DNA from: Candidatus Shapirobacteria bacterium
GTDB taxonomy: Bacteria > Patescibacteriota > Microgenomatia > UBA12405
Length of the DNA: 64,000 nt
Direction: 5' to 3'
Assembly: GCA_028704635.1 (NCBI GenBank)
Contig: JAQWFB010000001.1
Span: 5,541 to 69,540, forward strand
Part shown: positions 3,656 to 26,390 of the stretch, piece by piece
Numbering within the stretch: position 1 is the first letter of the stretch
Layout of the letters: every line of letters begins with the position of its first letter
Position numbers and translations under genes: made by a program
The notes under the pieces: model-generated
What the model saw: only the letters and a program-made list of their open reading frames with translations
Told to the model about the DNA's origin: nothing
Database searches by the model: none

Positions 3656-3686
3656 ATAAAACAAGTTATAATATTTTTTATAAAAT

Positions 3687-5077: not shown

Positions 5078-5137
5078 TGGATAAGATACACCTATAGGCC
5101 AATCACGTCAACATTTTCACATTCCAAATCACTAAAA

Positions 5138-5161
5138 AATCCCCTAAAGTAGGGGATTTTT
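5138..5161. terminator. A-tract / GC hairpin / T-tract (aatcccct-aaagt-aggggatt) bidirectional terminator-like element, repeat family copy 1
   Basis: Perfect 8-bp stem with 5-nt loop flanked by A6 and T5. A near-identical copy is at 7129-7152. Confidence 0.4.
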
Positions 5162-5172
5162 ATACTGACGGA

Positions 5173-5205
5173 CAGTGTGGTCCGAACTTGGAACTTATTT
5201 AAATA
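5173..5205. repeat. left copy of a 33-bp direct repeat (att-like), cagtgtggtccgaacttggaacttatttaaata
   Basis: 31/33 identical to 23623-23655. The right copy lies inside the 3' end of the serine recombinase gene. Confidence 0.6.
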
Positions 5206-5287
5206 AAATTGATAATACAAAGCCGACTTATGGCAAATCGAAAAATAAAGCAATATAATAAACTATTATTACCCAACAAAAAAACTG

Positions 5288-5809
5288 ATGGAAAATACAA
5301 TCGAACTATTACCAAAAAACTTTAATATTTCAAAAGATGAAACTGTTTTAATTTGTTTAAAAGGAACAAACAAAGAATGGTTAATTTGTACAGATAAAAA
5401 ACTCTATATTTTAAAAAGAGGATTTATGACTGGCCACCTCGCTGGAGACAGTAATTTTCAAATGCCATACAAAAATATAACTGGAGCACATACTGATTAT
5501 CATTTATTGACTGGATATTTTGAAGTAAGTACTGGTGGTATGCAAAATGTGCAAAAAAACTATTGGGCACAGGGACAAAACAGCCCACAGCAATCACCAA
5601 ATTGTGTCACAATCGCAGGAAAACCTATGCTAGAAAAATTTCGTGACGCTTGCCATTTTATTAATCAAAAGATTACAGAATTCGCCACTTCCAACAATAC
5701 ACCGACAAGTGTTGCGGATGAAATAAAAAAATATAAATCATTACTTGATGATGGTGTAATTACTCAAGAAGAATTCTCAGCCAAAAAAAAACAACTTTTA
5801 GGAATTTAA
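5288..5809 (+). CDS. bPH-like + SHOCT domain protein (hypothetical)
   Basis: C-terminal EIKKYKSLLDDGVITQEEFSAKKKQLLG matches the SHOCT short C-terminal domain. N-terminal LICLKGTNKEWLICTDKKLYILKRG resembles bacterial PH. Confidence 0.4.
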   Translation: MENTIELLPKNFNISKDETVLICLKGTNKEWLICTDKKLYILKRGFMTGHLAGDSNFQMPYKNITGAHTDYHLLTGYFEVSTGGMQNVQKNYWAQGQNSPQQSPNCVTIAGKPMLEKFRDACHFINQKITEFATSNNTPTSVADEIKKYKSLLDDGVITQEEFSAKKKQLLGI

Positions 5810-5833
5810 TTAAAATATATTTTAAAAATTATT

Positions 5834-6454
5834 TTACATTTCTTTAACTAAATTAAATTGATTTGAATTTTCACGCTTCTTTACAGCATTGTCTATATAC
5901 TTTTTGTAATTGTAATTTTTAATAAATTCATCAAAAGAAACAAGAGAAATGTAAGAATCTTTTAACTCATCATATACATTAGTGCATTGATGTAATTTAT
6001 ACGAATCTTTAATATTCATCATATTCTTTCTTACTAAATTTTCAAAATTTTTAATCGCTGTTAAAGGACAATTTTTAGAACATCGACAACAATTAAAAAT
6101 TCCCATTAAATAAGATTCTGCTTCTTTTGTATATAAAGCAACAACCCCATTTGTTCTATTATTTTCTCTATCCTCTAAGGAATATCGCAACTCATCATAT
6201 AACCAATCATCAATTTGATTATTACCATTTCTATCATAATTAATTGCATTTGGTGTAAGAATACAAATTGTTACAGATGTCTCTTTTAATTTACCGTAAA
6301 GGTATTCTTTAATAGTTTTTTCGGTTTGATTAGATCTATCTTCGTTTTCAGAATAGTTATTTATTGCAACAGTATCATCAAATAAATCATCCAATTCTTT
6401 CTTGTAATTGTTTCCATCACTAAATCTAAAAGATATAAACACATTTGTTGCCAT
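5834..6454 (-). CDS. TIR-domain protein (ThsB/DUF1863-like)
   Basis: N-terminal betaA VFISFRFSDG. Downstream SVTICILTPNAI, then DDWLYDELRYSL (W-x-x-E putative catalytic Glu helix). The start overlaps the stop of the upstream 3-TM gene (ATGA at 6454). Confidence 0.55.
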   Translation of the reverse strand: MATNVFISFRFSDGNNYKKELDDLFDDTVAINNYSENEDRSNQTEKTIKEYLYGKLKETSVTICILTPNAINYDRNGNNQIDDWLYDELRYSLEDRENNRTNGVVALYTKEAESYLMGIFNCCRCSKNCPLTAIKNFENLVRKNMMNIKDSYKLHQCTNVYDELKDSYISLVSFDEFIKNYNYKKYIDNAVKKRENSNQFNLVKEM

Positions 6455-6972
6455 TAGTATTGTTTAAATAAATAATAAAAATTTTCATTTCTAAAAGTAT
6501 TCTCTTTTTGGTTAATAAAAGTGTCATTTTTCCAGTAAATATCAATTTTATTAATATTTGAATAAAAAAATCCAAACAAAATTAATATTAATAACGGAAT
6601 ATAAAAAATATTCAATGTCTTCGAAAACATTGAATTAAGCCAACTATTTTTATTTTTTCTATAGTGTTCTGCTTTTAATGAGTAGTCAATTTTTTTGTCA
6701 TCTTTAATCAATCTAACCTCATCATAAAGTGCACGATAACATCTTTCTGTCGATAAAAAATAACCATCTAAAATCCAAAAAATTAAAATTATACAGATGG
6801 AGAATATAAAACAAAGATCATTTGAATCTTTAAACATGAAAGTAAATAACCCAACAATCAAAGTTATGGTCCACCCTTTTAACATAAAAAGATTATTACC
6901 CATACGAGTTACAATCGCCTGAATAAATTCCAAATGTTTTTGTTTATTAGTCATATAATTAACAGACACCAT
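6454..6972 (-). CDS. small 3-TM membrane protein co-transcribed with the TIR gene (candidate effector)
   Basis: Three predicted hydrophobic helices. There is 4-bp overlap with the downstream TIR ORF. Confidence 0.45.
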   Translation of the reverse strand: MVSVNYMTNKQKHLEFIQAIVTRMGNNLFMLKGWTITLIVGLFTFMFKDSNDLCFIFSICIILIFWILDGYFLSTERCYRALYDEVRLIKDDKKIDYSLKAEHYRKNKNSWLNSMFSKTLNIFYIPLLILILFGFFYSNINKIDIYWKNDTFINQKENTFRNENFYYLFKQY

Positions 6973-7075
6973 ACTTAATATTTCAAAGAGATTCTATCTA
7001 CTACCTATATAGTCAGTCAATATTGCAAAATATATCAAAATTTCATTTTGCAATTATTCCGCGGAGTAAAGTGTT

Positions 7076-7112
7076 ATTTTTCTCACCCCAACCTTAAAAG
7101 TTGCACTCATGG
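7076..7112. repeat. copy 1 of ttatttttctcacccc(a/g)accttaaaagttgcactcatg repeat
   Basis: Matches 26619-26656 at ~35/37 positions. Confidence 0.55.
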
Positions 7113-7128
7113 ATTATAAATCAAAAAA

Positions 7129-7152
7129 AATCCCCTAAAGCAGGGGATTTTT
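7129..7152. terminator. A-tract / hairpin (atcccct-aaagc-aggggat) / T-tract element, repeat family copy 2
   Basis: Same hairpin as 5138-5161. It lies immediately downstream of repeat 7076-7112. Confidence 0.4.
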
Positions 7153-7494
7153 GTATAAAGCGGGCCCTAGTGAACTATGTCAGCAACTACTATCAACATA
7201 ATCCAGGCTATAATTGCCTACTAGGATAGCTTTTCATGAAACATCAGGCCCCTTCCCTTTCTTATACGATTCCTATCTAAAAAACCATATTTTAATTGTG
7301 TTTTTTTACTATCCCTTACTAAGGATCCAAATCTTGCAAGTAATCTTTATTTTCCTTATAGATAAACACGACCACTTATTACTAAGTCGATTAGATAGCT
7401 TTGAGGGGGTGTGGGGAGAGTGTAGTTAGATTTTAAGGAAGTGATATTTTCAAAAAACCAAAAATTTTAAAACATGTGAATAAATTATAGTCAA

Positions 7495-8577
7495 TCAGTC
7501 ACCTATTGATTCCAGAATTGCTTTTGCAGTTAACTCTCCAAGTCTTGGAGGCACTGCATTTCCAATTTGTTTCGCAATATCACCAAAATTGCCTATAAAA
7601 ATAAAATCATCTGGAAATGTTTGTAGTCTAGCTGCTTCCCTTAAACTAATGGCCCTATCCTGTTCTGGATGTCCGAATCTACCTTTTGTAATCATACCGC
7701 ACCCTCCAGTCATGGTTGGAGATGGAGCGTCCCATCTCATTCGACCATAAACATCTTTATGTCCTGTGGTATTTTTATGACAGGTAAGAATTAATTTTTC
7801 TGGCCATGAAGTACGATCACCACCATTTTGTGGTGTATTTTTTATTCTTTGAAGGTTTATTTCTGCAAGTGATGCTGAACGGTGGAGCTTATCATAATTA
7901 TATGTTTCTCCTGCCTCGATTTTCGGTAAATCACCAATAGTGTTCTTAACCGTCATCCAAACTTTTAAAGTAGATTCTTTTTTAGCAGGATCGGCATGTG
8001 TTTGAGATAGAAAAACTGGTTCTTTTTTTCCTTTTATACCGATAATGACAACTCTTCTTCTGTGCTGTGGTACTCCATAATCAGCGGTATCGATTACATC
8101 ATATTTCAGTTTATAACCCATTTCTTTAATGTCCCCCAACACATCTTCAAGGATATTTTTGCCGATACCTTTAGCTAATCCTGGAACGTTTTCCATTACA
8201 AAAGCAACTGGTTTAACCTGTTTAATTATTTTAACCACTTCAAAAATAAGTTTGTTTCTAGGATCATTTCTTCTCTGGCTATTTCTTCGGGCATTAGAAA
8301 AACCTTGACAGGGAGGGCAGGCAATTAATACGATTTTGTCCTTTTTGGAGAGATTTCCAGCCTTCATAAGGTATTTACCGTCAACGTCACAGATGCTTTC
8401 TTTTATAACTTTACAATCCTTAAAATTAGCTTCAAATGATTTGCCTGCTATTTCATTGTTGTCAACGGCTACCCGAATATCAAAACCCATGTTTTTAAAT
8501 CCGAGAGCTGAACCTCCACACCCTGAAAATAGATCGATTACTTTATAGTTACTGTTCACATCATAAATATATAGCAT
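7495..8577 (-). CDS. DNA (cytosine-5)-methyltransferase
   Basis: Motif I DLFSGCGG, motif IV ACPPCQGFS, motif VI ENV, motif X QIGNAVPP. Confidence 0.85.
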   Translation of the reverse strand: MLYIYDVNSNYKVIDLFSGCGGSALGFKNMGFDIRVAVDNNEIAGKSFEANFKDCKVIKESICDVDGKYLMKAGNLSKKDKIVLIACPPCQGFSNARRNSQRRNDPRNKLIFEVVKIIKQVKPVAFVMENVPGLAKGIGKNILEDVLGDIKEMGYKLKYDVIDTADYGVPQHRRRVVIIGIKGKKEPVFLSQTHADPAKKESTLKVWMTVKNTIGDLPKIEAGETYNYDKLHRSASLAEINLQRIKNTPQNGGDRTSWPEKLILTCHKNTTGHKDVYGRMRWDAPSPTMTGGCGMITKGRFGHPEQDRAISLREAARLQTFPDDFIFIGNFGDIAKQIGNAVPPRLGELTAKAILESIGD

Positions 8578-8680
8578 TTCCTAGTGTAATTTCACAGACA
8601 ATTTTATTTTGATGATAAATCTAAAATTATTCCGAGGGTAATTTTACATGGTTTGATGTTACAATATTGCAATAATCAAG

Positions 8681-11317
8681 ATGAATTGGGAAAAAATTGA
8701 AGAATCCATTTTATTGTCATATCCTTTTTTCCGGAACTTAAATAGCAAAACTCAATTAACTTCCGGAGTACATCCTTTTGTGTTGTTGAATTCCTACCTA
8801 TGTATAAAATCCATTGAAACTTCACTTCCAAAAAAATTGTTAATAATTCTGCCTTTTAAAGCAGACATCGCCAAATGGGTATCTGTTGTGACAACTTTAA
8901 AACTTCTTAAGGAAGATTCCCTTGCTAACCAAGACATTAAAATAGAATATTTACCTGGGCAAAAACTACTTATCAATGGAGTTGTAGTCGAGTTTGTTGG
9001 AGAAGAAAATAATCCTTCCTACGGTTACCGCTTTATCATACGTTACTGGAACGATGATAAAAAACACCCTGGATACATTACGGACCATATACCTTGTGAA
9101 AATAACCAGATGTTTGAGATGGCAGACCAGAATTGTGAAATTAGTTCATATTCTAAGGTTGTAAAAGCATTGTTAGGTCTTGAAGAATCAAGTGTAGTTA
9201 CAAATGATATTCTTGGAATAAATTTTAGAAATACAATATCTAGATTTGAACGTAATGTAATCTTGGTATCTGGAATTGGAGAGACAAAAAGATTTGCGGA
9301 AATGAATACTGTTAACAATGTATTGGTCAGTGAGTTATTTCCGTGGGGTAAGTTGGATTACACGGGCGACACAACAGCATTATTTTATAAGGAAAAAGCA
9401 AAACCAAACTGCATCATTAGTTCCAATATGTTCGGAATCGAAGAATATATATCAAAAAAAGGAAAAAATTATGGAATTATTATTGATGGTATCGATAAAT
9501 GCACTGACAATCTCCAACAATTAGATGATTTGATCGACTCTGGAAATAGGATTGTTGTATTTTGCGACAGAAATGAACTCGATGAAGCGAATAAGTATTT
9601 AATTAATAGGGATTTCCTCGTTTGGTCATGGGATAAAAAGATGATTGCAGGGTTAACTTCAACTTTGTCTATTGGAGACATTAATAAGTCTTTCAATACC
9701 CAGTTAAAAAATTACTCTGAGTTGGGTATTAAGGTATTAAAAAGTAATAACCCAATAATTGAAGAATTAATCAATATTTCGTCTCCTGTTTTAAAAATTA
9801 ATCCAGAAGATTCAGGTCTTATTAATAAATTTAAATTCAATCTACTCTCTGCGATTAATGAAATAATTAGATTGGGATTTATACCCGACAACGAATATTT
9901 AACTAGTTTTCTAAAAAAATTGGAGGAATTAAAAAAAGAATACGGATTAATTAGCAACATGGCCAGCAATGATACTCGTGTTGGACTTACGAAAATTTTA
10001 GACATGTTAACAAATCTGAAAATTAATGATTTTGCTCACCCAGAAAGCAAAGCAAATAAAATTATTTCCTGGTTTAACAACTTGAGTGGTGACGACAAAA
10101 ATAAAAAATACATAACAATCTTTGATGACTTGAACCCCGCTCGACTTCACCAAGATCACTTCGCAAATTCAATCGATAAAGAAATAAAACTAGAAACGAT
10201 AGCTTTTGAAGATTTTATTATCTCCCACAATTTTGAAGAAGATGCCGTTATTTTTACCGGATGGCCAGGTAAAAAAAAGATGAAAATAATATCAAATATC
10301 AATGCGGCAAAAAATATGTTGTTTTTTCTGTATCCTCAGGAACAAAAATGGTTCAACTCATATATCAGAAACACCGAAAAATATAGCTTTGGAAAAAATG
10401 AACTTGATAAATTTGCGGAATATCTGGATGTACCAGTTATTGAAGAATTAAAAACAGCATTAACAGAGTACTCTGATCAAACGGAAAACATAATTGGAAT
10501 TGATGACATAACAGAGGCACAAGATACCTTATTAATAAGCTCATATTTACCAGACGATAATGAATGTAACAATCCAATACCGTCTAAATTAGTTGTTTTT
10601 AATAGAGATTATTTCTGGTACTCAACTGAGAACCATCGATTCATTGTTATTACGGATTTGATTGCTAATTGTACTGATGGACAAATAAAAACTTCAAGAC
10701 CAGAGGGTCTTCATGTGGGCGATACTGTTTTGATTAGGGAGTCAAATAAAGATTTAATCAGGGAAATTGCTGAAATTGATTTAAAAAATAGAGATGAAGA
10801 ATGGGCTATCGAAAAATCTAAAGTCTGGAAAGATGCACTGAAAACCGAATACAAAAAACAATATGAAAATATTTTTCGTTTAATCAGTGTGTTAAGAGAA
10901 GCTGGATGTAATAGACAAGTTCAAACCATTAAGCTTTGGCTCTTTGAAGATGACCGTATTGGTTTAAGGGATGAAAAGGATCTCGAATATATAGCGAAAG
11001 CAACTGGTTCAAAGGAAATGATTAATAACCTGGACAAAATTCGTGAAGCAATACATCTTGTCCGGGCAGCACATTTAAGAGCAGGTGACACACTCGCGAA
11101 AGAGCTTTTGAACCGATTGCCCGATGTTCTTAATGGTACAGGAAATAAAATCAGGTCAAGTATCGATCTTGGAGAATATGGTACAGCCTTTTTACTTAAG
11201 GTTATTGTTGTTGCCGATGACTATATTGATATCGAAAGTATTAAAGTTAATAAGTTACTAAATAAAAACAAATCAAATGATCAGACTCATACCTCCACTG
11301 TTGTCTTCAGAAAATAA
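8681..11317 (+). CDS. large hypothetical protein, first gene of the helicase/DUF1998 operon (DrmE-like by position only)
   Basis: 878 aa with no recognisable catalytic motif. The 3' end overlaps the next gene by 41 nt. Confidence 0.5.
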   Translation: MNWEKIEESILLSYPFFRNLNSKTQLTSGVHPFVLLNSYLCIKSIETSLPKKLLIILPFKADIAKWVSVVTTLKLLKEDSLANQDIKIEYLPGQKLLINGVVVEFVGEENNPSYGYRFIIRYWNDDKKHPGYITDHIPCENNQMFEMADQNCEISSYSKVVKALLGLEESSVVTNDILGINFRNTISRFERNVILVSGIGETKRFAEMNTVNNVLVSELFPWGKLDYTGDTTALFYKEKAKPNCIISSNMFGIEEYISKKGKNYGIIIDGIDKCTDNLQQLDDLIDSGNRIVVFCDRNELDEANKYLINRDFLVWSWDKKMIAGLTSTLSIGDINKSFNTQLKNYSELGIKVLKSNNPIIEELINISSPVLKINPEDSGLINKFKFNLLSAINEIIRLGFIPDNEYLTSFLKKLEELKKEYGLISNMASNDTRVGLTKILDMLTNLKINDFAHPESKANKIISWFNNLSGDDKNKKYITIFDDLNPARLHQDHFANSIDKEIKLETIAFEDFIISHNFEEDAVIFTGWPGKKKMKIISNINAAKNMLFFLYPQEQKWFNSYIRNTEKYSFGKNELDKFAEYLDVPVIEELKTALTEYSDQTENIIGIDDITEAQDTLLISSYLPDDNECNNPIPSKLVVFNRDYFWYSTENHRFIVITDLIANCTDGQIKTSRPEGLHVGDTVLIRESNKDLIREIAEIDLKNRDEEWAIEKSKVWKDALKTEYKKQYENIFRLISVLREAGCNRQVQTIKLWLFEDDRIGLRDEKDLEYIAKATGSKEMINNLDKIREAIHLVRAAHLRAGDTLAKELLNRLPDVLNGTGNKIRSSIDLGEYGTAFLLKVIVVADDYIDIESIKVNKLLNKNKSNDQTHTSTVVFRK

Positions 11318-13001
11318 AAGTAGCGGAGAGAGAAAACTATTTAATCTTTTTCTAAAAAGTGGAAATACTGATGATTGGACTGTTCTTCACTCATTAAATC
11401 TGAGTGAACATATAAATCAAATATGTGGAGAAATTGATTTTCTTGTTTTAGCCCCAAATTTAGGTATATTTTGCCTTGAGGTAAAGTCTGGGAACGTAAC
11501 ATGTCATGATGGGCTATGGATATATCGGGATAGATTTGGTGTTGACCATAAAAGCACCAAAGGTCCTTTCGTTCAAGTCAAAGATAATATGTTTAGTTTG
11601 ATCGAGTGGGTTAAAAAAAAGACTTCTAATAATCCAAAATTAATAAACATGTTATTCGGCTACGGAGTAGTATTTCCCGATGTTTCATTCAACATCGATA
11701 GTATCGAGTATGATCGATCATCCGTGTTTGACAATATGACTGGTTCTATCGAATCTTTTATCACAACTCTAGCTGAAAATACCAAAAAAAAAGAAGAGAA
11801 CTTAGGTAGAAAAAGATATTTACCATCACTAAAAGATATTGAAACTCTGGTCAGTATTCTAAGGCCTGAATTTGAAGTTTTCAGGAGCACTAAGGACATT
11901 TTAAATGATACCGAAGAAAAAATTAGTTCTTTCACGGAAGAACAATATAAATGTCTTGATTCTCTTAAAGATAATCCCCGTTGTTTATTTAATGGAGCCG
12001 CTGGAACTGGAAAGACGGTCATTGCCGTCGAATCCGTTAAAAGAAAAGTTTTTGATGAAAAGAGAGTGTTATTTATCTGTTTCAATTCTTTATTAAGTGA
12101 ATGGTTAAAATCCAGATTCACAGACAGTGAAAAAAAGTTTGTCACAATCGAAACACTTCCAGGTTATATGGAGAAAATAGCAGCCATTCCAGAATATATT
12201 AAACGCGACAACTATTATTTTGACCACGTATTACCAACAAAAGCCGCAGAATTGATTGTAAAAGACTTTAGTAAATTTGACTATCTGATCGTTGATGAGG
12301 GTCAGGACATAATTAGCGAAGTAAATTTTGCTTTTCTTGATAAGGTCTTAAAAAATGGAATAGCAAAAGGTTTCTGGGAAATTTATTGTGATATGGACCG
12401 TCAGTCATTATTTGCAAAACTATCACCAAAATTAATGAGAGAAAAAATCTCAAAATGGTCACCCAATGGTTTTGTATCTTATAAACTGAACATCAATTGC
12501 CGTAATACTAAAAATATTGCCGAGGAAATTTCTCTGGTATGCGGGTTTGAAAAAGACCAACTATTGCCAGGTAATATTGAGGGAAATCTACCGGTAAACT
12601 ATAAGTTTGTTGATCATGATCAGATTCCTTTTGAAATAGACAAAATAGTGGATTTTGTTTACTCAAAAAAGATTCCTTTAAACAGGATAACAGTGCTATC
12701 ACCAAAAAAATATCAGCTATCTGAGGCCTCCAAGATAAAAAGTAAATGTACAGTTTTAGAACGTAACAATCTATTTTCAATACCAGTCGATTCAATAACA
12801 TTTTCAACTATCGGAAAATTTAAAGGGTTGGAAAATTCTTTTATAGTTGTCACAGACTTTGATTCTATTGAAGAAGACTGTTTGGAAAAACTTTACGTCG
12901 CCATGTCTAGGGCAAAATATGGTCTATATTTGATTATGGGAAAAGAAGCCGAAAAAGATTATGATTCCATTGTTAGTAAAGTTAATAGCGTACAAAGATA
13001 A
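11277..13001 (+). CDS. NERD nuclease-related domain fused to UvrD/PcrA-like SF1 helicase core
   Basis: NERD: GEIDFLVLAPNLGIFCLEVKSG. Walker A NGAAGTGKTV, Walker B LIVDEGQDI, C-terminal LYVAMSRAKYGLYLI (UvrD_C motif). Confidence 0.7.
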   Translation: MIRLIPPLLSSENKSSGERKLFNLFLKSGNTDDWTVLHSLNLSEHINQICGEIDFLVLAPNLGIFCLEVKSGNVTCHDGLWIYRDRFGVDHKSTKGPFVQVKDNMFSLIEWVKKKTSNNPKLINMLFGYGVVFPDVSFNIDSIEYDRSSVFDNMTGSIESFITTLAENTKKKEENLGRKRYLPSLKDIETLVSILRPEFEVFRSTKDILNDTEEKISSFTEEQYKCLDSLKDNPRCLFNGAAGTGKTVIAVESVKRKVFDEKRVLFICFNSLLSEWLKSRFTDSEKKFVTIETLPGYMEKIAAIPEYIKRDNYYFDHVLPTKAAELIVKDFSKFDYLIVDEGQDIISEVNFAFLDKVLKNGIAKGFWEIYCDMDRQSLFAKLSPKLMREKISKWSPNGFVSYKLNINCRNTKNIAEEISLVCGFEKDQLLPGNIEGNLPVNYKFVDHDQIPFEIDKIVDFVYSKKIPLNRITVLSPKKYQLSEASKIKSKCTVLERNNLFSIPVDSITFSTIGKFKGLENSFIVVTDFDSIEEDCLEKLYVAMSRAKYGLYLIMGKEAEKDYDSIVSKVNSVQR

Positions 13002-16265: not shown

Positions 16266-18093
16266 AAAAAAAAGACCAGTAAGACAGGGACAACTTATAT
16301 CACCATGGGGTGTAGGACAAATGATACCTTTTCCAGAAGGGGACTCTCTCATGATAGCTGGACTTGATGCTTGGCAGGAAAAATATGGACATCCAGGAGA
16401 AGAGAAATACTTTGTCCAGGAGTTAAGATTGGAGAAAAGATTAGGGGTTAAACATTTTAGATTACCCCCTAATTTTATAGAGGAAGAAAGGGATCAGGCC
16501 AAGACCGTGCCTGCGATCAGATTTCCACAATGGCACTATTGCAAACACTGTGGTTCTATGGAGAAGTTAAGTATTTTTAGTACCCAATTACCCCACTGTA
16601 AAGGATTGCCATATGATGATATAAGTTGTCAAAATACACCTGAAAAAAGAAGGCTAAAGATGATACCAGTCCGCTTTGTAGTTATCTGTCCTGATGGACA
16701 TATCGATGATTTTCCATTTATGGAATGGGTGCATAGTAAAAGTAAAATGGTAGAAACCCCAGATTGTCGGTTAAGATACAAAATTAGAAGTGCTGGAAGT
16801 TCACTCGGTGCCATCAAATTAATCTGTAGTTGTGGAGCCAAGTCCAGTATGCATGGGTCATTTAATAAAGGGGGCTTAAAAAATATTTTAAAATGTAAAG
16901 GGTATAAACCGTGGCTAGGTAAAATTGAAGAATTCGATTCCGAACCGTGTGATAAGGAGTTGACTGTTGCTCAAAAAGGCGGATCAAACGTATATTTTCC
17001 AAATGTAATAAGCTCAATTTATATTCCCAGCGAATTTAGACCTGAGATTCATGAAAAATACCTTGATGAATATTGGAGTTACTTGACTGGGGTTTTAAAA
17101 AATGACGTATTAGATTTTGAAAGGTTTAAAAACGTTGCACTTAAAAACGGATTAGATCCCCAGGAGTTTTATGATAATGGGTTAAAACGCTATAAGGAAG
17201 CCACTAATTACGATGAGAGCCTTACAGAAAACGATATCGAAAAGGAAATTAGAAAACAAGAATATATTTACCTCACAGGAAATAAAAATATTGACAACGA
17301 TTATTTGACTCAAAAAACGTCACCTATTGATGGTTATAGTAAATTAATCCAAAGTTTTTGCAACCAAATATCTCTTGTTCACCGTCTTAAGGAAACCAGA
17401 GTTTTTACAGGATTTTCAAGATTAAACTCTAATGATGGTAAAACTTTATCTCAAAGAAAAAGTGAATTGTCATTAAAAAAAATTGATTGGCTTCCAGCTA
17501 TAACTGTTAGCGGTGAAGGTATTTTTCTAAAATTTAAAGACAGCCTAATCAAAACGTGGGAAACAAATGCTCTTGTAAAAGAAAGGGCAGAAATTATTAA
17601 TAACAACTTTGCTAATTATGCCCGCCAATTCAATTTACCCGAAAGAACAGTTAGCCCTGGATACATAATGGTCCACACTTTTTCCCATATTTTAATTAAT
17701 GAACTTAGCCTTGTTTGTGGATATGGAAGTTCGTCTTTAAGAGAGAGGATATATTTTAATGAAGATCAGGGCGAAAGTTATTTTGGTTTGTTGATCTACA
17801 CAGCATCTGGAGATTCTGAAGGATCTCTTGGTGGCCTAGTAAAACAGGGGTTACCCAGTCGACTAAACGAAATGATAATGTCCGCCTTAAATAAAGCAAG
17901 TTGGTGCTCGGTCGATCCAATCTGTATTGAAAGCCGTGGTCAAGGATTGGGATCGTGCAATTTAGCCGCATGCCACAACTGTGTCCTTCTACCAGAAACA
18001 TCCTGCGAACAATCAAATAGATTACTCGACCGTGCCATGTTAATCGGTACATTGGAAAACCATGAGATTGGTTTCTTTTCTAATATGGAATAA
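16252..18093 (+). CDS. DUF1998-family protein (DrmB-like), N-terminal multi-Cys region
   Basis: C-terminal WCSVDPICIESRGQGLGSCNLAACHNCVLLPETSCEQSNRLLDRAMLIG is the DUF1998 hallmark. There are 14 nt of overlap with the upstream helicase. Confidence 0.7.
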   Translation: MSQYRKKRPVRQGQLISPWGVGQMIPFPEGDSLMIAGLDAWQEKYGHPGEEKYFVQELRLEKRLGVKHFRLPPNFIEEERDQAKTVPAIRFPQWHYCKHCGSMEKLSIFSTQLPHCKGLPYDDISCQNTPEKRRLKMIPVRFVVICPDGHIDDFPFMEWVHSKSKMVETPDCRLRYKIRSAGSSLGAIKLICSCGAKSSMHGSFNKGGLKNILKCKGYKPWLGKIEEFDSEPCDKELTVAQKGGSNVYFPNVISSIYIPSEFRPEIHEKYLDEYWSYLTGVLKNDVLDFERFKNVALKNGLDPQEFYDNGLKRYKEATNYDESLTENDIEKEIRKQEYIYLTGNKNIDNDYLTQKTSPIDGYSKLIQSFCNQISLVHRLKETRVFTGFSRLNSNDGKTLSQRKSELSLKKIDWLPAITVSGEGIFLKFKDSLIKTWETNALVKERAEIINNNFANYARQFNLPERTVSPGYIMVHTFSHILINELSLVCGYGSSSLRERIYFNEDQGESYFGLLIYTASGDSEGSLGGLVKQGLPSRLNEMIMSALNKASWCSVDPICIESRGQGLGSCNLAACHNCVLLPETSCEQSNRLLDRAMLIGTLENHEIGFFSNME

Positions 18094-18274
18094 CATAAAG
18101 TAAATCCTTTATTGAGAAGTCTTAATAAAAAATGACAAATCGATATTTTAATCAGTGTGCCAAACAAATCATTTAAAAAAAAAAACGGTTCATCACGAAC
18201 AAATATAACCACTAAATAATAATCTCCGAACAACTATTTTGTGTATGATAGTAAAGTAGTAAATTACGTTCTTA

Positions 18275-19471
18275 TTACTTATCCTCATAATCCTTTAATG
18301 TGTACTCTTCTTGATATTCTTTGATTTTGTTTAAAATTTTATTTTGACTGTCTACGGCGTAGACTTTTACAATTCCCATCGTACCAGGAGATGGTGCTCC
18401 TCCACCTGATAATTGTGATTTAACTACTATATTATTTCCAATCACCTTAACTCTAATGTCAGTTCCATCTTCAATTAAAAGATTTGTATTATCATCGACT
18501 ATAGTTGATATGGATAACGTTTGACCGTGACAGCTTGAACAACCTTCTCCATTTAAAAACAAAGCTTGTAGGGTTAATTTTCCAACAGTAAATATTTGAC
18601 TTTTTAAAATTACTTCCCTATATTCATTAACTTTAATTAAAGTTTTGTTTTGATTATCTACTTCGTAGACTTTTACATTAATTGCGTCTTCTCCTGTTCC
18701 CACCATGTCTGATTTGAATCTAACCTCAATAGTATTTTTGTCTACTCTAACATTGATTCCATAACCTTTTTCTTTTAAAAACAAATTATCTTTATCAAAA
18801 ATATATAGTTCCTGGGAAACACTACTAGAAATAGGTATCGTCACTAAACTTTCTAGTTTTGACTCATCAACAACTAATTTAGTTTTATTCAATTTCCATA
18901 GACTCTGATTACCTACCAACTTTGAAATTAATGAATAGCTGTTTAAATATTTACTATCTTCCTTAGACAAGGTGTCATCACGGCGTGGATTGATGTTTTC
19001 CTTAATCTCTCCAGTTATTGGATTCACTATTAAACGGTAAGAAGCCGAATAACTTCCACGGTCTGGTTCATTGTTAGACAACTCAATATTTATTCCATCT
19101 ACTACCTTGGCCGAAATTAAACTAGCATTGGCCTGACCCTGTTGGAATAGTTTGGGATAATTATCCTTTCTTACAGTTAAATCAGGCTTAAAATTGTTCT
19201 CACTTTTATTACCCTCAGTGGGATTAATAAAAATAGAACCTTCTGTTAATTGAATTATTAAAACTCCTTTAGGAGTATCTAGGGAAACACTATAATCCAA
19301 TGGTTTGCTTTTATCCTCAGGAACTACAGTTTTTGAATTGTTTTCAATATCAGTAATAACTTCTCTTGGAATGTGTCGACTTATCTTTTCTCTGACTTTA
19401 CTAAAAAAACCAGCAACTAAACAAAAAACAAAGAATAGTATTAGAATTGAAAATAATTTATTTTTAGTCAT
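18275..19471 (-). CDS. secreted/lipid-anchored hypothetical protein
   Basis: N-terminal signal/TM LFSILILFFVFCLVAGFF, then a beta-rich sequence with no catalytic motif. Confidence 0.4.
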   Translation of the reverse strand: MTKNKLFSILILFFVFCLVAGFFSKVREKISRHIPREVITDIENNSKTVVPEDKSKPLDYSVSLDTPKGVLIIQLTEGSIFINPTEGNKSENNFKPDLTVRKDNYPKLFQQGQANASLISAKVVDGINIELSNNEPDRGSYSASYRLIVNPITGEIKENINPRRDDTLSKEDSKYLNSYSLISKLVGNQSLWKLNKTKLVVDESKLESLVTIPISSSVSQELYIFDKDNLFLKEKGYGINVRVDKNTIEVRFKSDMVGTGEDAINVKVYEVDNQNKTLIKVNEYREVILKSQIFTVGKLTLQALFLNGEGCSSCHGQTLSISTIVDDNTNLLIEDGTDIRVKVIGNNIVVKSQLSGGGAPSPGTMGIVKVYAVDSQNKILNKIKEYQEEYTLKDYEDK

Positions 19472-19590
19472 AGCTTAATTTACTCTAATCATTTCATTAA
19501 CTACTAGTTAGTTAAAATATACCATTTTTAGGCTTAATTATTAACCAACAGTTAATAAACTAATTCCAGTCAAATTGTTACCTTCTATCA

Positions 19591-19809
19591 ATGGAAGACC
19601 GTAAGGTAACGAATAAAGACTTAAAATTTGGTAAGAGACTTCAACGAGTCAGAAAATCGGCTGGTTTCACTCAAGAAAAACTAGCAGAGGGGACAAGACT
19701 AAGCACAACCTTCATAGGATTACTTGAAATTGGTCAAAGACGACCAAGTATGAAAACACTCCAAAAAATCGCATCAACATTGAAAGTAGATGTAAAAGAT
19801 TTGTTTTGA
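19591..19809 (+). CDS. XRE-family HTH transcriptional regulator
   Basis: FTQEKLAEGTRLSTTFIGLLEIGQRRPSMKTLQKIASTL is a Cro/C1-type HTH. It is a paralog of 26391-26600 (shared C-terminal D[IV]KDLF). Confidence 0.7.
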   Translation: MEDRKVTNKDLKFGKRLQRVRKSAGFTQEKLAEGTRLSTTFIGLLEIGQRRPSMKTLQKIASTLKVDVKDLF

Positions 19810-19852
19810 CCGACTAGACTTTATTAACCACTGGTTTATAATTAGGTTAATA

Positions 19853-20167
19853 ATGATATTTCCAAATAATAGTTGGCTAGAAAAACATTGGTGGCATAGA
19901 CTAGCAAAAATCTTCAGAATAATTTTTTCTTTATTTTTTATTTTTGTTGCGATATATTATGTCGCTTTTGTTCCGGTTGTTGATCCTGCCATGAACATTT
20001 CTATTCCAATTTGCGCTGGAATATCAATATTAATTGCCATCTTTGGTTTTCCTCTTTTGTATAAAATTTTACTGTATGTTTTTGTAAGTGATTGGAAAAC
20101 AAAAATTAAACCCGATAAAAAAAGTTCAGAACAAACTAAAGCTAAATGGAATCATACGATAATGTAA
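19853..20167 (+). CDS. small 2-TM membrane protein (hypothetical)
   Basis: Hydrophobic helices. Confidence 0.35.
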   Translation: MIFPNNSWLEKHWWHRLAKIFRIIFSLFFIFVAIYYVAFVPVVDPAMNISIPICAGISILIAIFGFPLLYKILLYVFVSDWKTKIKPDKKSSEQTKAKWNHTIM

Positions 20168-20360
20168 GTTAAAGTCTACCCGCGTAGACAATTACATAAA
20201 ATTTTAAACAATCAATTATTGTTCGTCTTAGTATTGCTGGCAACGAGACAATCATAAATCTTAAATAAGTTTAGGTCGTATTAACACCAAATCTGGCTTC
20301 ACTAAATGACCTAGAATCGTTGGAATATCATTAATCGAGTATAATTAGGTTAGATTAATA

Positions 20361-21053
20361 TTGATATTAAAAATGGACAACAATGTTAGTAAACTGGTTG
20401 TACTAATAACCAAGCAACGAAAATTTATTGAGAGTAATTTTGAGAAATATCGGGAAGAGATTTGCAATCTTGGTGATGACAAAATATTGGAATTTCTTGG
20501 GAGTACCGAAAGTGAAATTGCTTTATGGGAAAAGAGAGTCATTAGGGTGTTAAAAACTTTTAACAAACAAAACTACCTAATCCGTTTTAGTCATCCAAAG
20601 GATATTAAGTCATCCCACAACGCCTATATTACGGAAGCTATCGATTGCAAAGTCATGGCTCAACTTAATGAATTAAACGATATTTTAACTGAACTCGAAA
20701 ATAATAATTTACCAATAAAATCCAAAAAAATTATTCACCAGATTGAATACACTGAAAATCGTGAAATTTTATTAGACGGAAAAGTAATTCATCGATTCCA
20801 ATCAGATTCACCAGGCGAAAATCTTTTTAGCTACTTAATTAATAATCCAAATAAAGTTATTGAATTAAAAGAAATTGAAAAAAACGAAGGTAGAGATGAT
20901 ATTTCTAAAGGAATTCATCAAAAAATTAGAGACTTAGGTTTCAAAGGAAAATTAAAGACGATGTTTTTTCCAGGATTAGATGAACAAAAAATCCAATTTA
21001 TCAACCCAATCACCAAAGCTTACTTAAACGAGAATCACATCTTTGAAACTTAA
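20361..21053 (+). CDS. hypothetical protein
   Basis: 230-aa ORF inside the mobile element with no motif. Confidence 0.35.
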   Translation: MILKMDNNVSKLVVLITKQRKFIESNFEKYREEICNLGDDKILEFLGSTESEIALWEKRVIRVLKTFNKQNYLIRFSHPKDIKSSHNAYITEAIDCKVMAQLNELNDILTELENNNLPIKSKKIIHQIEYTENREILLDGKVIHRFQSDSPGENLFSYLINNPNKVIELKEIEKNEGRDDISKGIHQKIRDLGFKGKLKTMFFPGLDEQKIQFINPITKAYLNENHIFET

Positions 21054-21302
21054 CCAATATCGATAATGTGAAACAGTGTGAAATGATGAGAAATCCCTAA
21101 AGTAGGGCATAACTGATTATACAATCTGTTATGTCAATAAATTTAAATGAAGATTGGCTCAATAGTGAGCTTAAAAAAGAGGTACTCGATCTCTTTCAAC
21201 CTTTGTATAAACACCCATTGACTGAAACTGAAGTAACAAATATTGCCAACACTCTCGCCAACACAGCCGAATTATGGATTAAATTCAACTGGAGGATCGA
21301 TC

Positions 21303-21536
21303 ATGCCAACTAATAACTATAGAACCAAGGATCTAGCTGAATCAGCCACCCTGCTTACCTTAGGACAAAAAATTATTGATGTTGAAAGAATAGACCGTAT
21401 TTGCTGGTTTGTTTTTGCCGATTCAAAAAAATGCCAAAAAATAGCTAATCAATTTTGGTATGACCAATGTCTCGTCGATGCCAAAACTTATTATGATTCG
21501 ATTGTCAGGTTAAAAAATAGAATATTTTCTAGCTAA
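21303..21536 (+). CDS. DUF5659-like small protein typical of integrative elements
   Basis: YRTKDLAESATLLTLGQKIIDVERIDRICWFVFADS...FWYDQ pattern (DL.LAa.L..lG..l / kv.FvF / .Yw). The internal Met start is inferred. Confidence 0.4.
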   Translation: MPTNNYRTKDLAESATLLTLGQKIIDVERIDRICWFVFADSKKCQKIANQFWYDQCLVDAKTYYDSIVRLKNRIFSS

Positions 21537-21555
21537 GAAGACCAAGCAGACAAAT

Positions 21556-22050
21556 ATGATTAAAATTAATAAAAAAGGCTGCACCTGGATTCCAAACTAT
21601 TGGATTGTCGGTGATGACATTTCTGACGCCGCTTTTCGAACTCTTTCAATCATTAGAAGTTACAACTTTGATCAAATTTACCCATCCGTAAAAAGAATTG
21701 CTGAAAGAAGAGGTAAGAGTAGAAGTACCATTTTTCTCCACCTTAAAGAACTAAAGGAGAAGAAATATATTACAACCAAAAGATCAGGATACTCTACTTC
21801 AAATATATACAAATTCAGTAGTCCAGAAAATTGGACTAATGAATCAAACCCGACATCAAATAATGATACTTCTATCGTCCAGGAAACTGGTCTTCAGTCG
21901 TCCAATAATCCAGACCCTAATAATAGTCTTAATAAAGAATTAAAAAATAGTCAAAATCCTTTAAGGGGAGAAGAATTAGAAAAGGCTAAAGAAAATCTTT
22001 TTAATAAACTCCCATGGGTAAACAAAAACAAAAATCATCTTAAAAAGTAA
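21556..22050 (+). CDS. winged-helix DNA-binding protein (replication/excision accessory-like)
   Basis: IAERRGKSRSTIFLHLKELKEKKYITTKR wHTH. Confidence 0.35.
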   Translation: MIKINKKGCTWIPNYWIVGDDISDAAFRTLSIIRSYNFDQIYPSVKRIAERRGKSRSTIFLHLKELKEKKYITTKRSGYSTSNIYKFSSPENWTNESNPTSNNDTSIVQETGLQSSNNPDPNNSLNKELKNSQNPLRGEELEKAKENLFNKLPWVNKNKNHLKK

Positions 22051-22091
22051 TATAATTTTATTAGGGAAACCAATAATAAAATCTCAAATTT

Positions 22092-23699
22092 TTGGAATAT
22101 TCGGTTATATCAATTAATATCAATATGAAAACAAATCAAGACAATTCGTTAAAGTATTGCCAATACTGTCGAAAATCATCCGAGAGTAAAGAAAAACAGG
22201 CCTTATCGATTCCTGATCAAATCAAGGTTTGTGGAGAATATGCTGTCAAAAACGAACTAAATATTGTTGCAAAAATAGAAGAATCAAAATCTTCTTACAA
22301 ACCCCATATCAGACCTGAATTCGATAAAATTTTAAAAATGATTGGCGATAAAAAAATTGATGCAATTCTGACATGGAAACTTGATCGACTATGCCGTAAT
22401 CCAGAAGAAGGTGGAATTCTACTTCAATTACTTCAAGACGGAAAAATAAAAGAAATTAGGACACCAATGGGAGATATTTATACCCAAGAAAGTGATCATT
22501 TAATTCTCCAAATTCATTTTGGAATGGCAAATCAATATTCACGAGCAATCAGTCAAAACGTTCGTCGTGCTCTCGTATGTAAAGCCGAAAGGGGAGAGTT
22601 TACTAAACCTGCTCCACTTGGCTATGAAGGAATCGGTGAAAGTAAAAGTCGTTTGATTAAACCTCATAAATTTGAAGCACCACTTCTAGTTCAAGCTTAT
22701 GAATTAGCTAAATCTGGTCGGTACTCACTAAGTAATATTCAAAAATATTTAAAAGATAACGGTTTAAAAACCAAAAGAGGGAAAGATTTAAGCAAAAGCC
22801 ATTTATATCGAATCCTTACCAGTTCAATTTATTATGGTGTTTTCAACCATAATGGCATTGCTTATCAAGGTAACTATGAACCACTTATCAATAAGTCAAC
22901 CTTTGATGAAGTTCAAATCGCTTTGGGTGTTAGGTCTAAGCCCAAGAAATTAATTTGGGAGTCGGTTTACAATGGCTTATTCTTCTGTCCAGATTGTGGC
23001 TGTGCCATAACCACTGTAAACAAAAAGAAGTTAATTAAAAAAACTAATAAATATGAAACTTACACTTATCTAGTGTGTACTCATCGAAAGGGAAATTGCC
23101 AACAAAAACCAATATCTGCAGATGATTTTGATAAACAAATTATGGCAAAAATCGGGCCACTTAAACTTACCGAAAGAAAATGGGAATTAGCATTAAAACT
23201 ATTTCGAGCCAAAAATGCCAATCAAAATCAAACCCAATCTAAATTTATTGATAACCTTCATTTGCAACTCAAGATTCATCAAGAAAAATTAAATCGACTG
23301 ATTAATATGAGAGCAGGAGACGAAATTACTGCTGAAGAGTTCAAAGAACAAAAATTAATTATCCTTAATGAACAAACACGAATCAGTGAGGCAATCAATC
23401 GATACAACGAAACCAATCAAAATTGGTTGGAACTGTCAGAAAACTTCATAAATAAGGTATTCTTAGCCAAAAAAATATTATCCGATGGTTTACCAGAAGA
23501 AAAAAAGAAACTGATTGATGAGGTCGGTCGGAACTTATTTCTAAACAATAAAAAAGTGGAACTTACCTTAAAAGAACCATACATAGCCATGACAAATCCA
23601 GCTATTTCTAATAATATGCGGGCAATGTGGTCCGAACTTGGAACTTATTTAGATAGGAATGATACAATCAAATATGAATTGTCCACATTGTTTACATAG
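22092..23699 (+). CDS. large serine recombinase (integrase), element 1
   Basis: Resolvase N-domain YCRKSSESKEKQ (Ser nucleophile motif) and LDRLCRN. Recombinase domain, zinc ribbon CPDCGC...C, then a coiled-coil tail. The 3' end spans the right att-like repeat. Confidence 0.85.
   Translation: MEYSVISININMKTNQDNSLKYCQYCRKSSESKEKQALSIPDQIKVCGEYAVKNELNIVAKIEESKSSYKPHIRPEFDKILKMIGDKKIDAILTWKLDRLCRNPEEGGILLQLLQDGKIKEIRTPMGDIYTQESDHLILQIHFGMANQYSRAISQNVRRALVCKAERGEFTKPAPLGYEGIGESKSRLIKPHKFEAPLLVQAYELAKSGRYSLSNIQKYLKDNGLKTKRGKDLSKSHLYRILTSSIYYGVFNHNGIAYQGNYEPLINKSTFDEVQIALGVRSKPKKLIWESVYNGLFFCPDCGCAITTVNKKKLIKKTNKYETYTYLVCTHRKGNCQQKPISADDFDKQIMAKIGPLKLTERKWELALKLFRAKNANQNQTQSKFIDNLHLQLKIHQEKLNRLINMRAGDEITAEEFKEQKLIILNEQTRISEAINRYNETNQNWLELSENFINKVFLAKKILSDGLPEEKKKLIDEVGRNLFLNNKKVELTLKEPYIAMTNPAISNNMRAMWSELGTYLDRNDTIKYELSTLFT
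23623..23655. repeat. right copy of 33-bp direct repeat (att-like)
   Basis: caatgtggtccgaacttggaacttatttagata matches 5173-5205. Confidence 0.6.
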
Positions 23700-24354: not shown

Positions 24355-24494
24355 AATATATAATGTGTATAAAATTCTCTTTTGATAAATTATTGACAAA
24401 GATTTTATAAAATGTAAGACTTTTATAATAAAAAGTAGAAAAGATGATTATATTTGATATAATTCGACACAGTATTATTTAAAAAATAAAAAAA

Positions 24495-24749: not shown

Positions 24750-24758
24750 TTATATAGA

Positions 24759-26290: not shown

Positions 26291-26390
26291 AGTTAATTAT
26301 TTTATTGAATAAATTTACCTTACTTGTCGCTATTTTTAATATAAATAGGAAATATATTTCCTGTTGAAATAATGACATTTATGTCAGATT

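Follow-up and report, generated by a model that had tools for sequence, protein, structure and literature searches.

Two near-identical 33-bp direct repeats stand 18.4 kb apart in a contig of Candidatus Shapirobacteria (JAQWFB010000001.1, positions 5,541 to 69,540; this stretch of 64,000 nucleotides is called the window below), and the question raised by the locus is whether they bound one mobile element. The original prediction had read the interval 5173-23655 as a single 18.5-kb integrative element whose attL and attR are the repeats and whose recombinase gene ends across the right-hand copy. In this study, the repeats, the junctions around them and homologous loci in related contigs were compared. 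The observation itself was confirmed and the single-element interpretation was partly supported: the sequence at 5174-29727 is probably a tandem array of three serine-recombinase units that occupies the 3' end of a tRNA-Asp gene and is flanked by the host genes fbp and polX. From left to right, the array would consist of a terminator hairpin (T1) with a degenerate core, a remnant (S1), a second terminator (T2) with the core GCGGGC, an element carrying DISARM genes (E1), GCGGGC again, a further element (E2) and tRNA-Asp.

Direct reading of the window shows the repeats, at 5173-5205 and 23623-23655, to be identical at 31 of 33 positions, as had been claimed, and gapless similarity extends to 46 nt (5169-5214 against 23619-23664, 87%). 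The exact 25-nt core GTGGTCCGAACTTGGAACTTATTTA is present in just two copies in the 64-kb window, and still in two when three mismatches are allowed, against an expectation of 0 matches (100 shuffles). The small hairpin within the repeat is not significant (z -2.1 in a fold test). The idea that the repeat is a tRNA gene or another RNA gene was rejected, as ARAGORN and Rfam report only the true tRNA-Asp. A scan of viral contigs with the repeat core gave no match and a metagenome scan gave two real hits; a match to a 20-mer of the repeat in the contig L006 was set aside as a chance similarity within a coding region.

The identity of the repeat follows from L007, a metagenome contig with a complete 5.8-kb element that encodes a Rep protein and a large serine recombinase (LSR) resembling LSR2, the recombinase of E2; such elements are referred to as E2-type. 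The repeat stands at the left end of this element and tRNA-Asp at its right. The left end reads terminator hairpin, ATATTT, GCGGAC/AATGTGGTCCGAACTTGGAACTTATTTAAAC (a slash marks a junction), and the left arm is followed by a gene for a 190-residue protein and by genes for ThsB, a transmembrane protein, an S-adenosylmethionine (SAM) methyltransferase and an XRE regulator. The remainder comprises a long hairpin, an HUH Rep gene (REP_ORF2-G2P) and the LSR2-like gene, which ends ...TAATGCGGAC/CGGATGGGATTCGAACCC, the last part being tRNA-Asp. The two ends, attL TTTGCGGAC/AATG and attR AATGCGGAC/CGGA, share only TGCGGAC. Given this short shared sequence and the position of the repeat at the left end, the repeat is the element-side (P') arm of an E2-type element. 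Furthermore, it is not the crossover core, because the ends of L007 share only TGCGGAC and the window junctions J2, J3 and J4 described below share only GCGGGC (6-8 nt). The repeats are therefore att-related, as had been proposed, in that both are copies of the E2-type P' arm. A blastn comparison of the window with L007 gave the following map.

5130-5203, terminator and repeat: 90.5% match
5852-6467, ThsB: 82% match
6732-7081, transmembrane-protein gene: 74% match
7077-7111, left arm of the hairpin: 100% match over 35 nt to L007 2967-3001
25577-27235, methyltransferase, XRE and hairpin: 94% match
28268-29832, LSR2 and tRNA-Asp: 88% match

The nucleotide identity of L007 is thus 74-100% to S1 and 88-94% to E2, and the two repeats open two different stretches of E2-type DNA.

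How a recombinase gene comes to end in foreign sequence is explained by the family to which it belongs. The gene at the right end of E1 is the following.

22125-23699, + strand: LSR1, the E1 large serine recombinase; native coding sequence as far as the core GCGGGC (23618-23623), with the last 25 codons contributed by the next element

As originally predicted, the open reading frame (22092-23699) reads through the right repeat; the start at Met-12 used by NCBI gives 524 residues (P0001, a protein of a Candidatus Shapirobacteria metagenome-assembled genome that is 100% identical to LSR1), and the host belongs to the Candidate Phyla Radiation (CPR; Patescibacteria). As encoded, LSR1 ends ...MRAMWSELGTYLDRNDTIKYELSTLFT before the stop codon (also written ...NNMRAMWSELGTYLDRNDTIKYELSTLFT). 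Its Pfam domains are Resolvase (8e-20), Recombinase (4e-13) and Zn_ribbon_recom (5.6e-8); LSR2 (28271-29761) has the same three, lies in the same orientation and is 32% identical to LSR1. A PDB sequence search matched the resolvase domain only, and in the alignment to PDB entry 3g13 the CRKS of LSR1 stands opposite CRVS. By its domain order LSR1 is a bona fide large serine recombinase, with predicted recombination activity.

A homologue search from LSR1 and LSR2 listed 240 CPR proteins. Among these, 118 end in a DSNP/DSNL/ESNP-type peptide, as results when a tRNA T-arm (GATTCGAACC) is translated in antisense, at least 14 have another conserved tail, h-x-x-[D/E/N]-[Y/V/F]-[V/I/L]-[G/R]-T-[Y/F]-[Y/F], and most of the rest stop a few codons past the last conserved block. 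The closest relatives of LSR1 (70-87% identical) end MRxQWDSNPRSSA, within tRNA-Asp, and the C-terminus of LSR2, MRARWDSNPRSSA, is likewise encoded inside tRNA-Asp. The contigs L003 and L004 carry an LSR1-type backbone (XRE to winged helix-turn-helix (wHTH) gene and LSR) in which the recombinase gene overlaps tRNA-Asp directly upstream of polX, and the recombinase of L002 ends DMRA in tRNA-Asp. Recombinase genes of this family therefore carry attP over their own 3' ends, and their targets are the 3' ends of tRNAs.

The counterpart of these integrated forms is L009 (Logan SRR27197493_8805), a 12-kb contig that is circular, as its ends overlap exactly over 30 nt and one gene is split over them. 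Its LSR, 46% identical to LSR1, ends in a P'-type tail, LELVEYVGTYYLSLSLTK, and its cargo consists of an EcoRII-C/C5-methylase restriction-modification pair, an ADP-ribosylglycohydrolase, a Terminase_2-like protein and DUF5659. L009 is a free form of an LSR1-type element, the native non-integrated state that the array model expects. As a side observation, L012 (Logan SRR11128413_2013), of 4.2 kb with a 24-nt terminal overlap, codes only for an LSR (tail VWNDVGTYFVNL), a reverse transcriptase (RVT_1) and a protein of 153 residues, and is possibly a second circular example, a minimal element with reverse-transcriptase-based defence cargo. L013, a 6.7-kb contig with features at 1181-2548 and 5064-6566, combines a Rep-LSR pair, the LSR of which ends in a P'-type tail (FLIDVRTFFEQTPQ), with a second Recombinase-domain protein of 455 residues, and is possibly another array or a two-recombinase element.

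From these comparisons, a mechanism can be proposed. Each unit would have been inserted by its LSR at the extreme 3' end of tRNA-Asp. The P arm of attP would consist of the last conserved recombinase codons, mimicking the tRNA 3' end and the terminator flank, and the P' arm would encode a native tail of ~20 residues (motif LVxYVGTY[YF]) that mimics the tRNA T-arm. With exchange within GCGG(G/A)C, integration would rebuild the tRNA and swap the recombinase tail for antisense tRNA sequence (WDSNPRSSA before the stop). The odd tail of LSR1, MWSELGTYL..., is explained by the P' arm of E2, which now follows the LSR1 coding sequence. The two repeats would then be two E2-type P' arms, one in the attL of the S1 remnant (B/P'2) and one at the E1/E2 junction (P1/P'2). 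The junctions concerned, J1 to J4 as read from junction alignment A1, are as follows.

5134-5164, no strand assigned: T1, bidirectional terminator hairpin, the host-side (B) arm of J1; DNA fold -10.7 kcal/mol, z -5.65
5168-5214, + strand: J1, attL of the S1 remnant, with the degenerate core ACGGAC (5168-5173) and the left repeat (P'2 arm, 5174-5214); T1-ATACTGA-CGGAC/AGTGTGGTCC..., that is, B/P'2
7125-7165, no strand assigned: host-type arm of J2, with the T2 hairpin (7125-7155), GTATAAA and the core GCGGGC (7160-7165), equal to the tRNA-Asp 3' end; T2-GTATAAA-GCGGGC/CCTAGTGAAC..., that is, B/P'1
7166-7234, + strand: P'1 arm of the DISARM element E1; the LSR1 frame encodes the predicted native tail LVNYVSNYYQHNPGYNCLLG and a stop
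23618-23664, + strand: J3, hybrid junction of the core GCGGGC and the right repeat (P'2 arm of E2); LSR1...ATATGCGGGC/AATGTGGTCC..., that is, P1/P'2
29722-29727: J4, core GCGGGC; LSR2...TAATGCGGGC/CCGATGGGATTCGAACCC..., that is, P2/B'

The layout of J1 (terminator, ~7 nt, GCGGAC/AATGTGGTCCGAACTTGGAACTTATTTAAA) is also found in L005 and L007, and hairpins of the T1 type stand just 3' of the intact tRNA-Asp in L005 and in the attL of L007. At J2, T2 is 94% identical to T1 and is followed by GTATAAAGCGGGCCC; the sequence ATAAAGCGGGCCC is identical to the tRNA-Asp 3'-end sequence in L001. The P'1 frame, translated after ...MRA, includes LVNYVSNYY..., which matches the non-tRNA tail of the family (P0149, WLVDYVGTYY; P0118, LELVEYVGTYY; P0128, ALGNYVGTYF). 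In addition, the contig L008 contains an array in which an LSR1-type element (with cargo, XRE, backbone and an LSR of 506 residues that ends in tRNA-Asp) comes after a Rep-LSR element, and the junction GCGGGC/ATTAGGTAACTATGTTGGAACCTATTTT of this array aligns without gaps to GCGGGC/CCTAGTGAACTATGTCAGCAACTACTAT of the window. A terminator, a tRNA-Asp end, a native-tail arm and the match to L008 together identify 7125-7234 as the attL (B/P'1) of the DISARM element.

Strand exchange, and with it the crossover dinucleotide, would be located within GCGG(G/A)C, a segment covering the discriminator of the tRNA and its first acceptor bases. The P arms within the recombinase genes mimic the B arm (GATTTTT-N7-ATGCGG) and the P' arms mimic the tRNA T-arm, so that the resemblance of the repeats to the tRNA-Asp 3' end, which had been noted earlier, is genuine. 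GGAAC is found at +17 to +21 in the P' arms (the two repeat copies and L008) and CGAAC at +12 to +16 in the tRNA arm, where both the motif and the centre are inferred. Large serine recombinase cores are generally short (PMC9262239), and attP half-sites are reported to have the DBD2 motif 5 bp further from the centre than attB half-sites do (PMC11722253), a rule that the GGAAC/CGAAC offsets would fit. It was also observed that the last codons of LSR1 (...GATTTTTCGCTAATGCGGGC; 23593-23623) and LSR2 (...CTATTTCTAATAATATGCGGGC; 29697-29727) resemble the host arm, taken as the right half of the terminator with its spacer (GGGGATTTTTATTTTATGCGGAC; L005 1437-1467). The coding end of the LSRs appears to be constrained to mimic the attB half-site.

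The contents of the three units agree with these boundaries. The left repeat opens S1 (5174-7111), a truncated 2-kb E2-type remnant with a ThsB/PDC-M50A cassette.

5288-6972, mixed strands: S1 cargo, with SHOCT/bPH (5288-5809, +), ThsB-like TIR (5834-6454, -) and PDC-M50A membrane protein (6454-6972, -)
7066-7111, + strand: D3L, the E2-type long hairpin D3 reduced to its left arm, 87% identical to 26611-26656

Profile matches (PADLOC, with Pfam also used) gave ThsB at 2e-82 and PDC-M50A at 2.7e-44, and the ThsB and transmembrane-protein genes have 82% and 74% nucleotide identity to their counterparts in L007. These genes, with the half-hairpin, are syntenic with the cargo of L007 and not with LSR1-type elements. 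The homology stops exactly at the start of the D3 hairpin loop; it looks as if the break fell at a nick site.

The DISARM element E1 is 7166-23623, 16,458 bp in length.

7495-18093, mixed strands: DISARM class 2-like cargo, with C5 methyltransferase/DrmMII (7495-8577, -), DrmE-like (8681-11317, +), NERD-UvrD helicase (11277-13001, +), DrmA (13002-16265, +) and DrmB (16252-18093, +)
18275-22050, mixed strands: backbone, with an unknown 398-residue protein (18275-19471, -), XRE (19591-19809), 104 residues, 230 residues (20361-21053), 60 residues, DUF5659 (21243-21536) and HTH_36 wHTH (21556-22050)

The class 2 core (DrmA, DrmB and the C5 methylase DrmMII) is present, with PADLOC values of 1.7e-212 for DrmA, 2.1e-78 for DrmB and 1.2e-100 (MTase_II) or 3.5e-56 (DrmMII) for the methylase, and Pfam reports MZB and DNA_methylase. 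The DrmE-like protein matches weakly and in its C-terminal domain only (Pfam DrmE_C 8.7e-9, PADLOC 2.7e-4). Compared with known DISARM class 2 systems, E1 likewise clusters DrmA, DrmB, a C5 cytosine methylase and a large upstream protein matching the C-terminal domain of DrmE; it differs in the weakness of that match, in the NERD-UvrD helicase between the DrmE-like gene and DrmA, and in lacking a PLD-type DrmC, which is optional in class 2. The backbone is syntenic with L003 and L004, LSR1-type elements directly at tRNA-Asp (73-77% nucleotide identity), and HTH_36 and DUF5659 are also found in L009, L010 and L011. L003, L004, L010 and L011 do not extend to the left end of the LSR1-type element.

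The right repeat opens an intact element, E2 (23624-29727, 6,104 bp), which ends in tRNA-Asp.

23659-26600, mixed strands: cargo and regulator, with DUF4145/PD-T7-4-like (23659-24354), 84 residues, 180 residues, SAM methyltransferase (25565-26290, -) and XRE (26391-26600)
26628-26702, + strand: D3 hairpin, 75 nt, a near-perfect stem between XRE and Rep; DNA fold -23.2 kcal/mol, z -7.9
27210-29761, + strand: core, with HUH Rep (REP_ORF2-G2P, 27210-28274) and LSR2 (28271-29761), 88% identical in nucleotides to L007

The methyltransferase-XRE-D3 region is 94% identical in nucleotides to L007. D3, which is conserved in L007 (2967-3047) and complete in the window at 26628-26702 only, may serve E2 as an origin of rolling-circle replication or as a nick site. 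A weak 33-nt direct repeat (76%) was also seen between 5249-5281, upstream of the SHOCT gene in S1, and 26868-26900, in the region upstream of Rep in E2; a promoter or operator common to both might explain it, as might chance. In both element types, variable defence cargo stands beside the P' arm and the conserved backbone (XRE to recombinase) is at the opposite end.

The host side of the locus shows how much of it is inserted.

4049-5077, - strand: fbp, class 1 fructose-1,6-bisphosphatase, host gene of the left flank, from its translation; an 88% identical homologue is in L001
29722-29796, - strand: tRNA-Asp(GTC), integration target, intact (ARAGORN; Rfam tRNA 67.3 bits)
29877-30914, + strand: polX, host gene of the right flank (Pfam)

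The flank tRNA-Asp-polX-LemA-M48 is common to the window, L003 and L005. A scan of a genome collection with fbp returned one relative only, L001, in which fbp is 88% identical, ndk is identical at 212 of 215 positions and fbp is separated from tRNA-Asp by ~1.15 kb containing two small genes (GIY-YIG and HSDR_N-like); the right side of this locus is not visible because the contig breaks inside tRNA-Asp. L005 has the unit intact (terminator hairpin, ATTTTAT and tRNA-Asp), with polX-LemA-M48-DnaE behind it as a flank that is 81% identical to the right flank of the window. The short spacing in L001 and the intact site in L005 imply that 5174-29727 (~24.6 kb) is all inserted DNA. The suggested comparison with related genomes thus finds the insert absent from both, and the view that this is mobile DNA, which a large serine recombinase has integrated site-specifically, is borne out. 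What the array model expects of an accreted locus was found: two LSRs in the same orientation, an intact tRNA-Asp, hybrid junctions, short loci in L001 and L005, and an independent array in L008.

What was seen directly comprises the junction sequences with their homologues in other contigs, sites that are intact or nearly empty, and a relative in free circular form. We infer the current mobility of the array elements and the order of insertion, which would be either E1 and then E2 into the tRNA, or E2 and then E1 into the attL of E2, both leading to the same structure. The model predicts an E1 circle junction ...TCTAATAATATGCGGGC/CCTAGTGAACTATGTCAGC, in which P1/P'1 would read ATATGCGGGC/CCTAGTGAACTATG, and a site ...GGGGATTTTTGTATAAAGCGGGC/AATGTGGTCCGAACTTGG after loss of E1. 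For E2, the circle junction would be ...TTTTTCGCTAATGCGGGC/AATGTGGTCCGAACTTGG, and the site after its loss ...AATAATATGCGGGC/CCGATGGGATTCGAACCC, which would restore LSR1 with a WDSNPRSSA-type tail.

Several points weigh against this account. The evidence consists entirely of comparison with related contigs; neither an excised circle nor an empty site was observed for the genome itself. The second host-type arm (T2, spacer and GCGGGC, 7125-7165) is not made by simple serial attP x attB integration and needs one extra event. The P'1 arm at J2 is somewhat degenerate: it has AGCAAC against TGGAAC in L008, and its AAC is displaced outwards by one base. At J1, the core (ACGGAC) is not the GCGGGC of this genome but the acceptor variant seen in L005 and L007, so that S1 and T1 may have been imported by recombination. 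Finally, the left ends are known from one external example each, L007 for the E2 type and L008 for the E1 type. As for the T2 arm, an origin in LSR reactions among the existing junctions was rejected, as none of these duplicates a B arm. It is possible that the right half of an old element was replaced by deletion or substitution using an empty allele, that ancestral tandem terminator-tRNA-Asp units were followed by deletion, that template switching occurred between the D3 and T hairpins, or that terminator-ended cassettes were mobilized in trans, as in L005. That contig has three terminator(+repeat) units (519-588, 1144-1231 and 1423-1468) with unrelated small genes between them and no recombinase, the leftmost being the most decayed, and L001 has half a terminator and a full terminator around one gene (421-445 and ~1160-1175).

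Of the other ways to account for the locus, a single 18.5-kb element (5173-23655) inserted by LSR1, with the repeats as attL and attR from a duplicated 33-bp common core, is very unlikely. It draws on the near-identical direct repeats flanking a block with a recombinase at one end, and on genes between them that are all accessory; the cargo is indeed defence and regulatory genes, as had been claimed (Pfam, PADLOC). It implies a circle junction ...ATGCGGGCAATGTGGTCCGAACTTGGAACTTATTTA/AATAAAATTGATAATAC (also written ...GGAACTTATTTA/AATAAAATTGATAATAC) with excision of 5206-23655, a leftover site fbp-T1-...TTATTTA/GATAGGAATGATACA-DUF4145, and a AATGTGGTCCGAAC arm at the left ends of other LSR1-type elements (>70% identity). 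However, attL and attR in this family share only 6-8 bp, as in L007, in keeping with the short cores of LSRs generally (PMC9262239). One integration would not have made both repeats, because the DNA beyond the right repeat is the cargo of another element and not host DNA; an uninterrupted host site beside fbp is absent from the relatives, neither L001 nor the fbp-proximal region having it, and the same arm opens a separate element in L007. Nor is the block of one type: 5174-7111, with the left-end genes, is syntenic with the E2-type L007 and 19498-23637 with L003 and L004, the attL-like junction inside it at 7125-7234 is left unexplained, and the closest relatives of LSR1 target tRNA-Asp itself.

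The repeats could also have delimited a composite unit, S1 and E1 (5174-23623), once excised and moved jointly after an E2-type attL recombined with the attR of E1 to give a hybrid attP (P1/P'2), the left repeat being the arm of this unit and the right that of E2. This would explain the host-type arm (T2 and core) inside the block and the foreign GCGGAC-type core at J1, and tandem arrays exist in both orders (window and L008). It is nevertheless improbable, as it requires a non-canonical multi-step history, no composite circle or second S1-T2-E1 arrangement occurs in any fetched locus, and the repeats would still be homologous P' arms and not the attL and attR of one integration. About as improbable is a local tandem duplication of the left part of an E2-type element, from the terminator to the left arm of D3, by template switching at the D3/T hairpins or unequal exchange, with divergence of the copies in cargo and later insertion of E1 into the attL of the second copy as a pseudo-attB. 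Three colinear pairs (T1/T2, the left and right repeats and D3L/D3), the left D3 homology that ends exactly at the start of the hairpin loop, and the presence of both ThsB-transmembrane and methyltransferase-XRE cargo in the single element of L007 would suit it, but S1 is less close to L007 than E2 is (74-82% versus 88-94% of nucleotides) and the two cores are unlike (ACGGAC versus GCGGGC), both of which point to independent acquisitions, and L005 has three T(+repeat) units with unrelated genes between them. Lastly, the source is a metagenome-assembled genome, and related assemblies often break at tRNA-Asp (L001, L002 and L008), so that a contig chimeric at short repeats, with an array present in no single cell, was considered. 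This is extremely unlikely: exact identity runs are short (26 nt in the repeats, ~16 nt in T), below common assembly k-mer sizes, a comparable two-element array was assembled independently in L008, and synteny is consistent on both flanks.

The three-unit array at tRNA-Asp resembles several known systems. Islands driven by tyrosine integrases are well known to accrete in tandem at tRNA genes. As in these islands and in arrays of integrative and conjugative, integrative and mobilizable, and cis-mobilizable elements, successive insertions at one tRNA gene build an array, older elements are displaced and decay to cargo-only remnants, and hybrid junctions stand between the units; in contrast, the units in the window are serine-driven, the sequence common to their junctions is 6-8 bp long, where the islands have a tRNA core of at least 25 bp, and an extra host-type arm (terminator and tRNA end) lies inside the array. 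With the large serine integrases of temperate phages and integrative elements (phiC31, Bxb1, A118/LI, SPbeta SprA and PLE Int) the family shares the Resolvase/Recombinase/Zn-ribbon order, a nucleophilic Ser (in CRKS) and a short common core; its P and B half-sites are asymmetric and would, with the motif placed as above, also show the shift of 5 bp. It differs in that its elements are 4-16 kb long, have no virion or conjugation genes and come from CPR bacteria.

The position of attP has parallels as well. In myxophage Mx8 (intP/intX) and SSV1-type integrases, which are tyrosine integrases, attP lies within the coding sequence and the C-terminus is changed by integration. In the integration-dependent immunity of the mycobacteriophage BPs, which uses a tyrosine integrase, attP is in a gene and integration at a tRNA gene alters the C-terminus of an element protein, a repressor that loses an ssrA-like tag (PMC9262239). 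The family in the window shares with these systems (BPs, Brujita, Mx8 and SSV1) an intragenic attP and the altered C-terminus of an element-encoded protein on tRNA-gene integration; the difference from integration-dependent immunity is that the altered protein is the serine recombinase, and its tail motif may simply reflect constraints on the DNA half-site. No relevant paper on CPR/Patescibacteria serine recombinases at tRNA genes was found, in a searchable literature that is incomplete, which makes this weak evidence of novelty.

The main interest of the locus is that, throughout the family, attP is placed within the recombinase gene and tRNA genes are the target. A very abundant family of CPR serine recombinases behaves like tRNA-targeting tyrosine integrases, stacking defence elements at one tRNA; on integration, its own coding sequence would restore the tRNA 3' end and its own C-terminus would be altered. 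The corrected boundaries matter, since PCR, read-mapping or extraction of a 'DISARM island' would otherwise use the wrong junctions. The result also helps in charting mobile DNA and defence islands of CPR genomes, the assemblies of which typically end at such tRNAs, and the family may supply serine integrases with predictable tRNA-derived att sites. A further idea, speculative and in our view rather doubtful, is that the C-terminal tail reports the state of the element, being LVxYVGTY[YF]... when free, WDSNPRSSA before the stop when integrated in a tRNA and the tail of the next element when displaced in an array, that the swap tunes stability or directionality, and that the T-loop GAAC is the zinc-ribbon recognition motif. 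If true, the tail swap would be a serine-recombinase counterpart of integration-dependent immunity, and the occurrence of GAAC in almost every tRNA would allow the family to spread over many tRNA targets.

Some minor observations concern the tRNA gene and its surroundings. The acceptor stem of tRNA-Asp occurs in two compensated variants, GGGCUCG/CGGGCCC (window 29722-29796, L001, L003 and L008) and GGACUGG/CCGGUCC (L005 1462-1536 and L007 5883-5957). The P arms of the elements carry the matching variant (GCGGGC versus GCGGAC), and element and host lineages thus appear to co-vary; J1 of the window has the core variant of the other lineage. Three genomes have two to three copies per locus of the tRNA-Asp terminator, each including ~15 nt to its left and the first bases of the tRNA end, with unrelated small genes between the copies, which looks like a cassette array with a mechanism that LSR integration does not explain. 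L001 (CAYRMT010000002.1) is labelled 'uncultured Gammaproteobacteria bacterium', yet its ndk and fbp match those of the Shapirobacteria window and it has the same tRNA-Gly and tRNA-Thr neighbours; the contig is probably mis-binned or mislabelled. Between ndk and fbp, the window (3143-4052) has genes for an unknown 170-residue protein and a 121-residue K+-channel-like membrane protein, and in L001 (2257-2265) ndk adjoins fbp without these two genes, which marks a second small variable spot.

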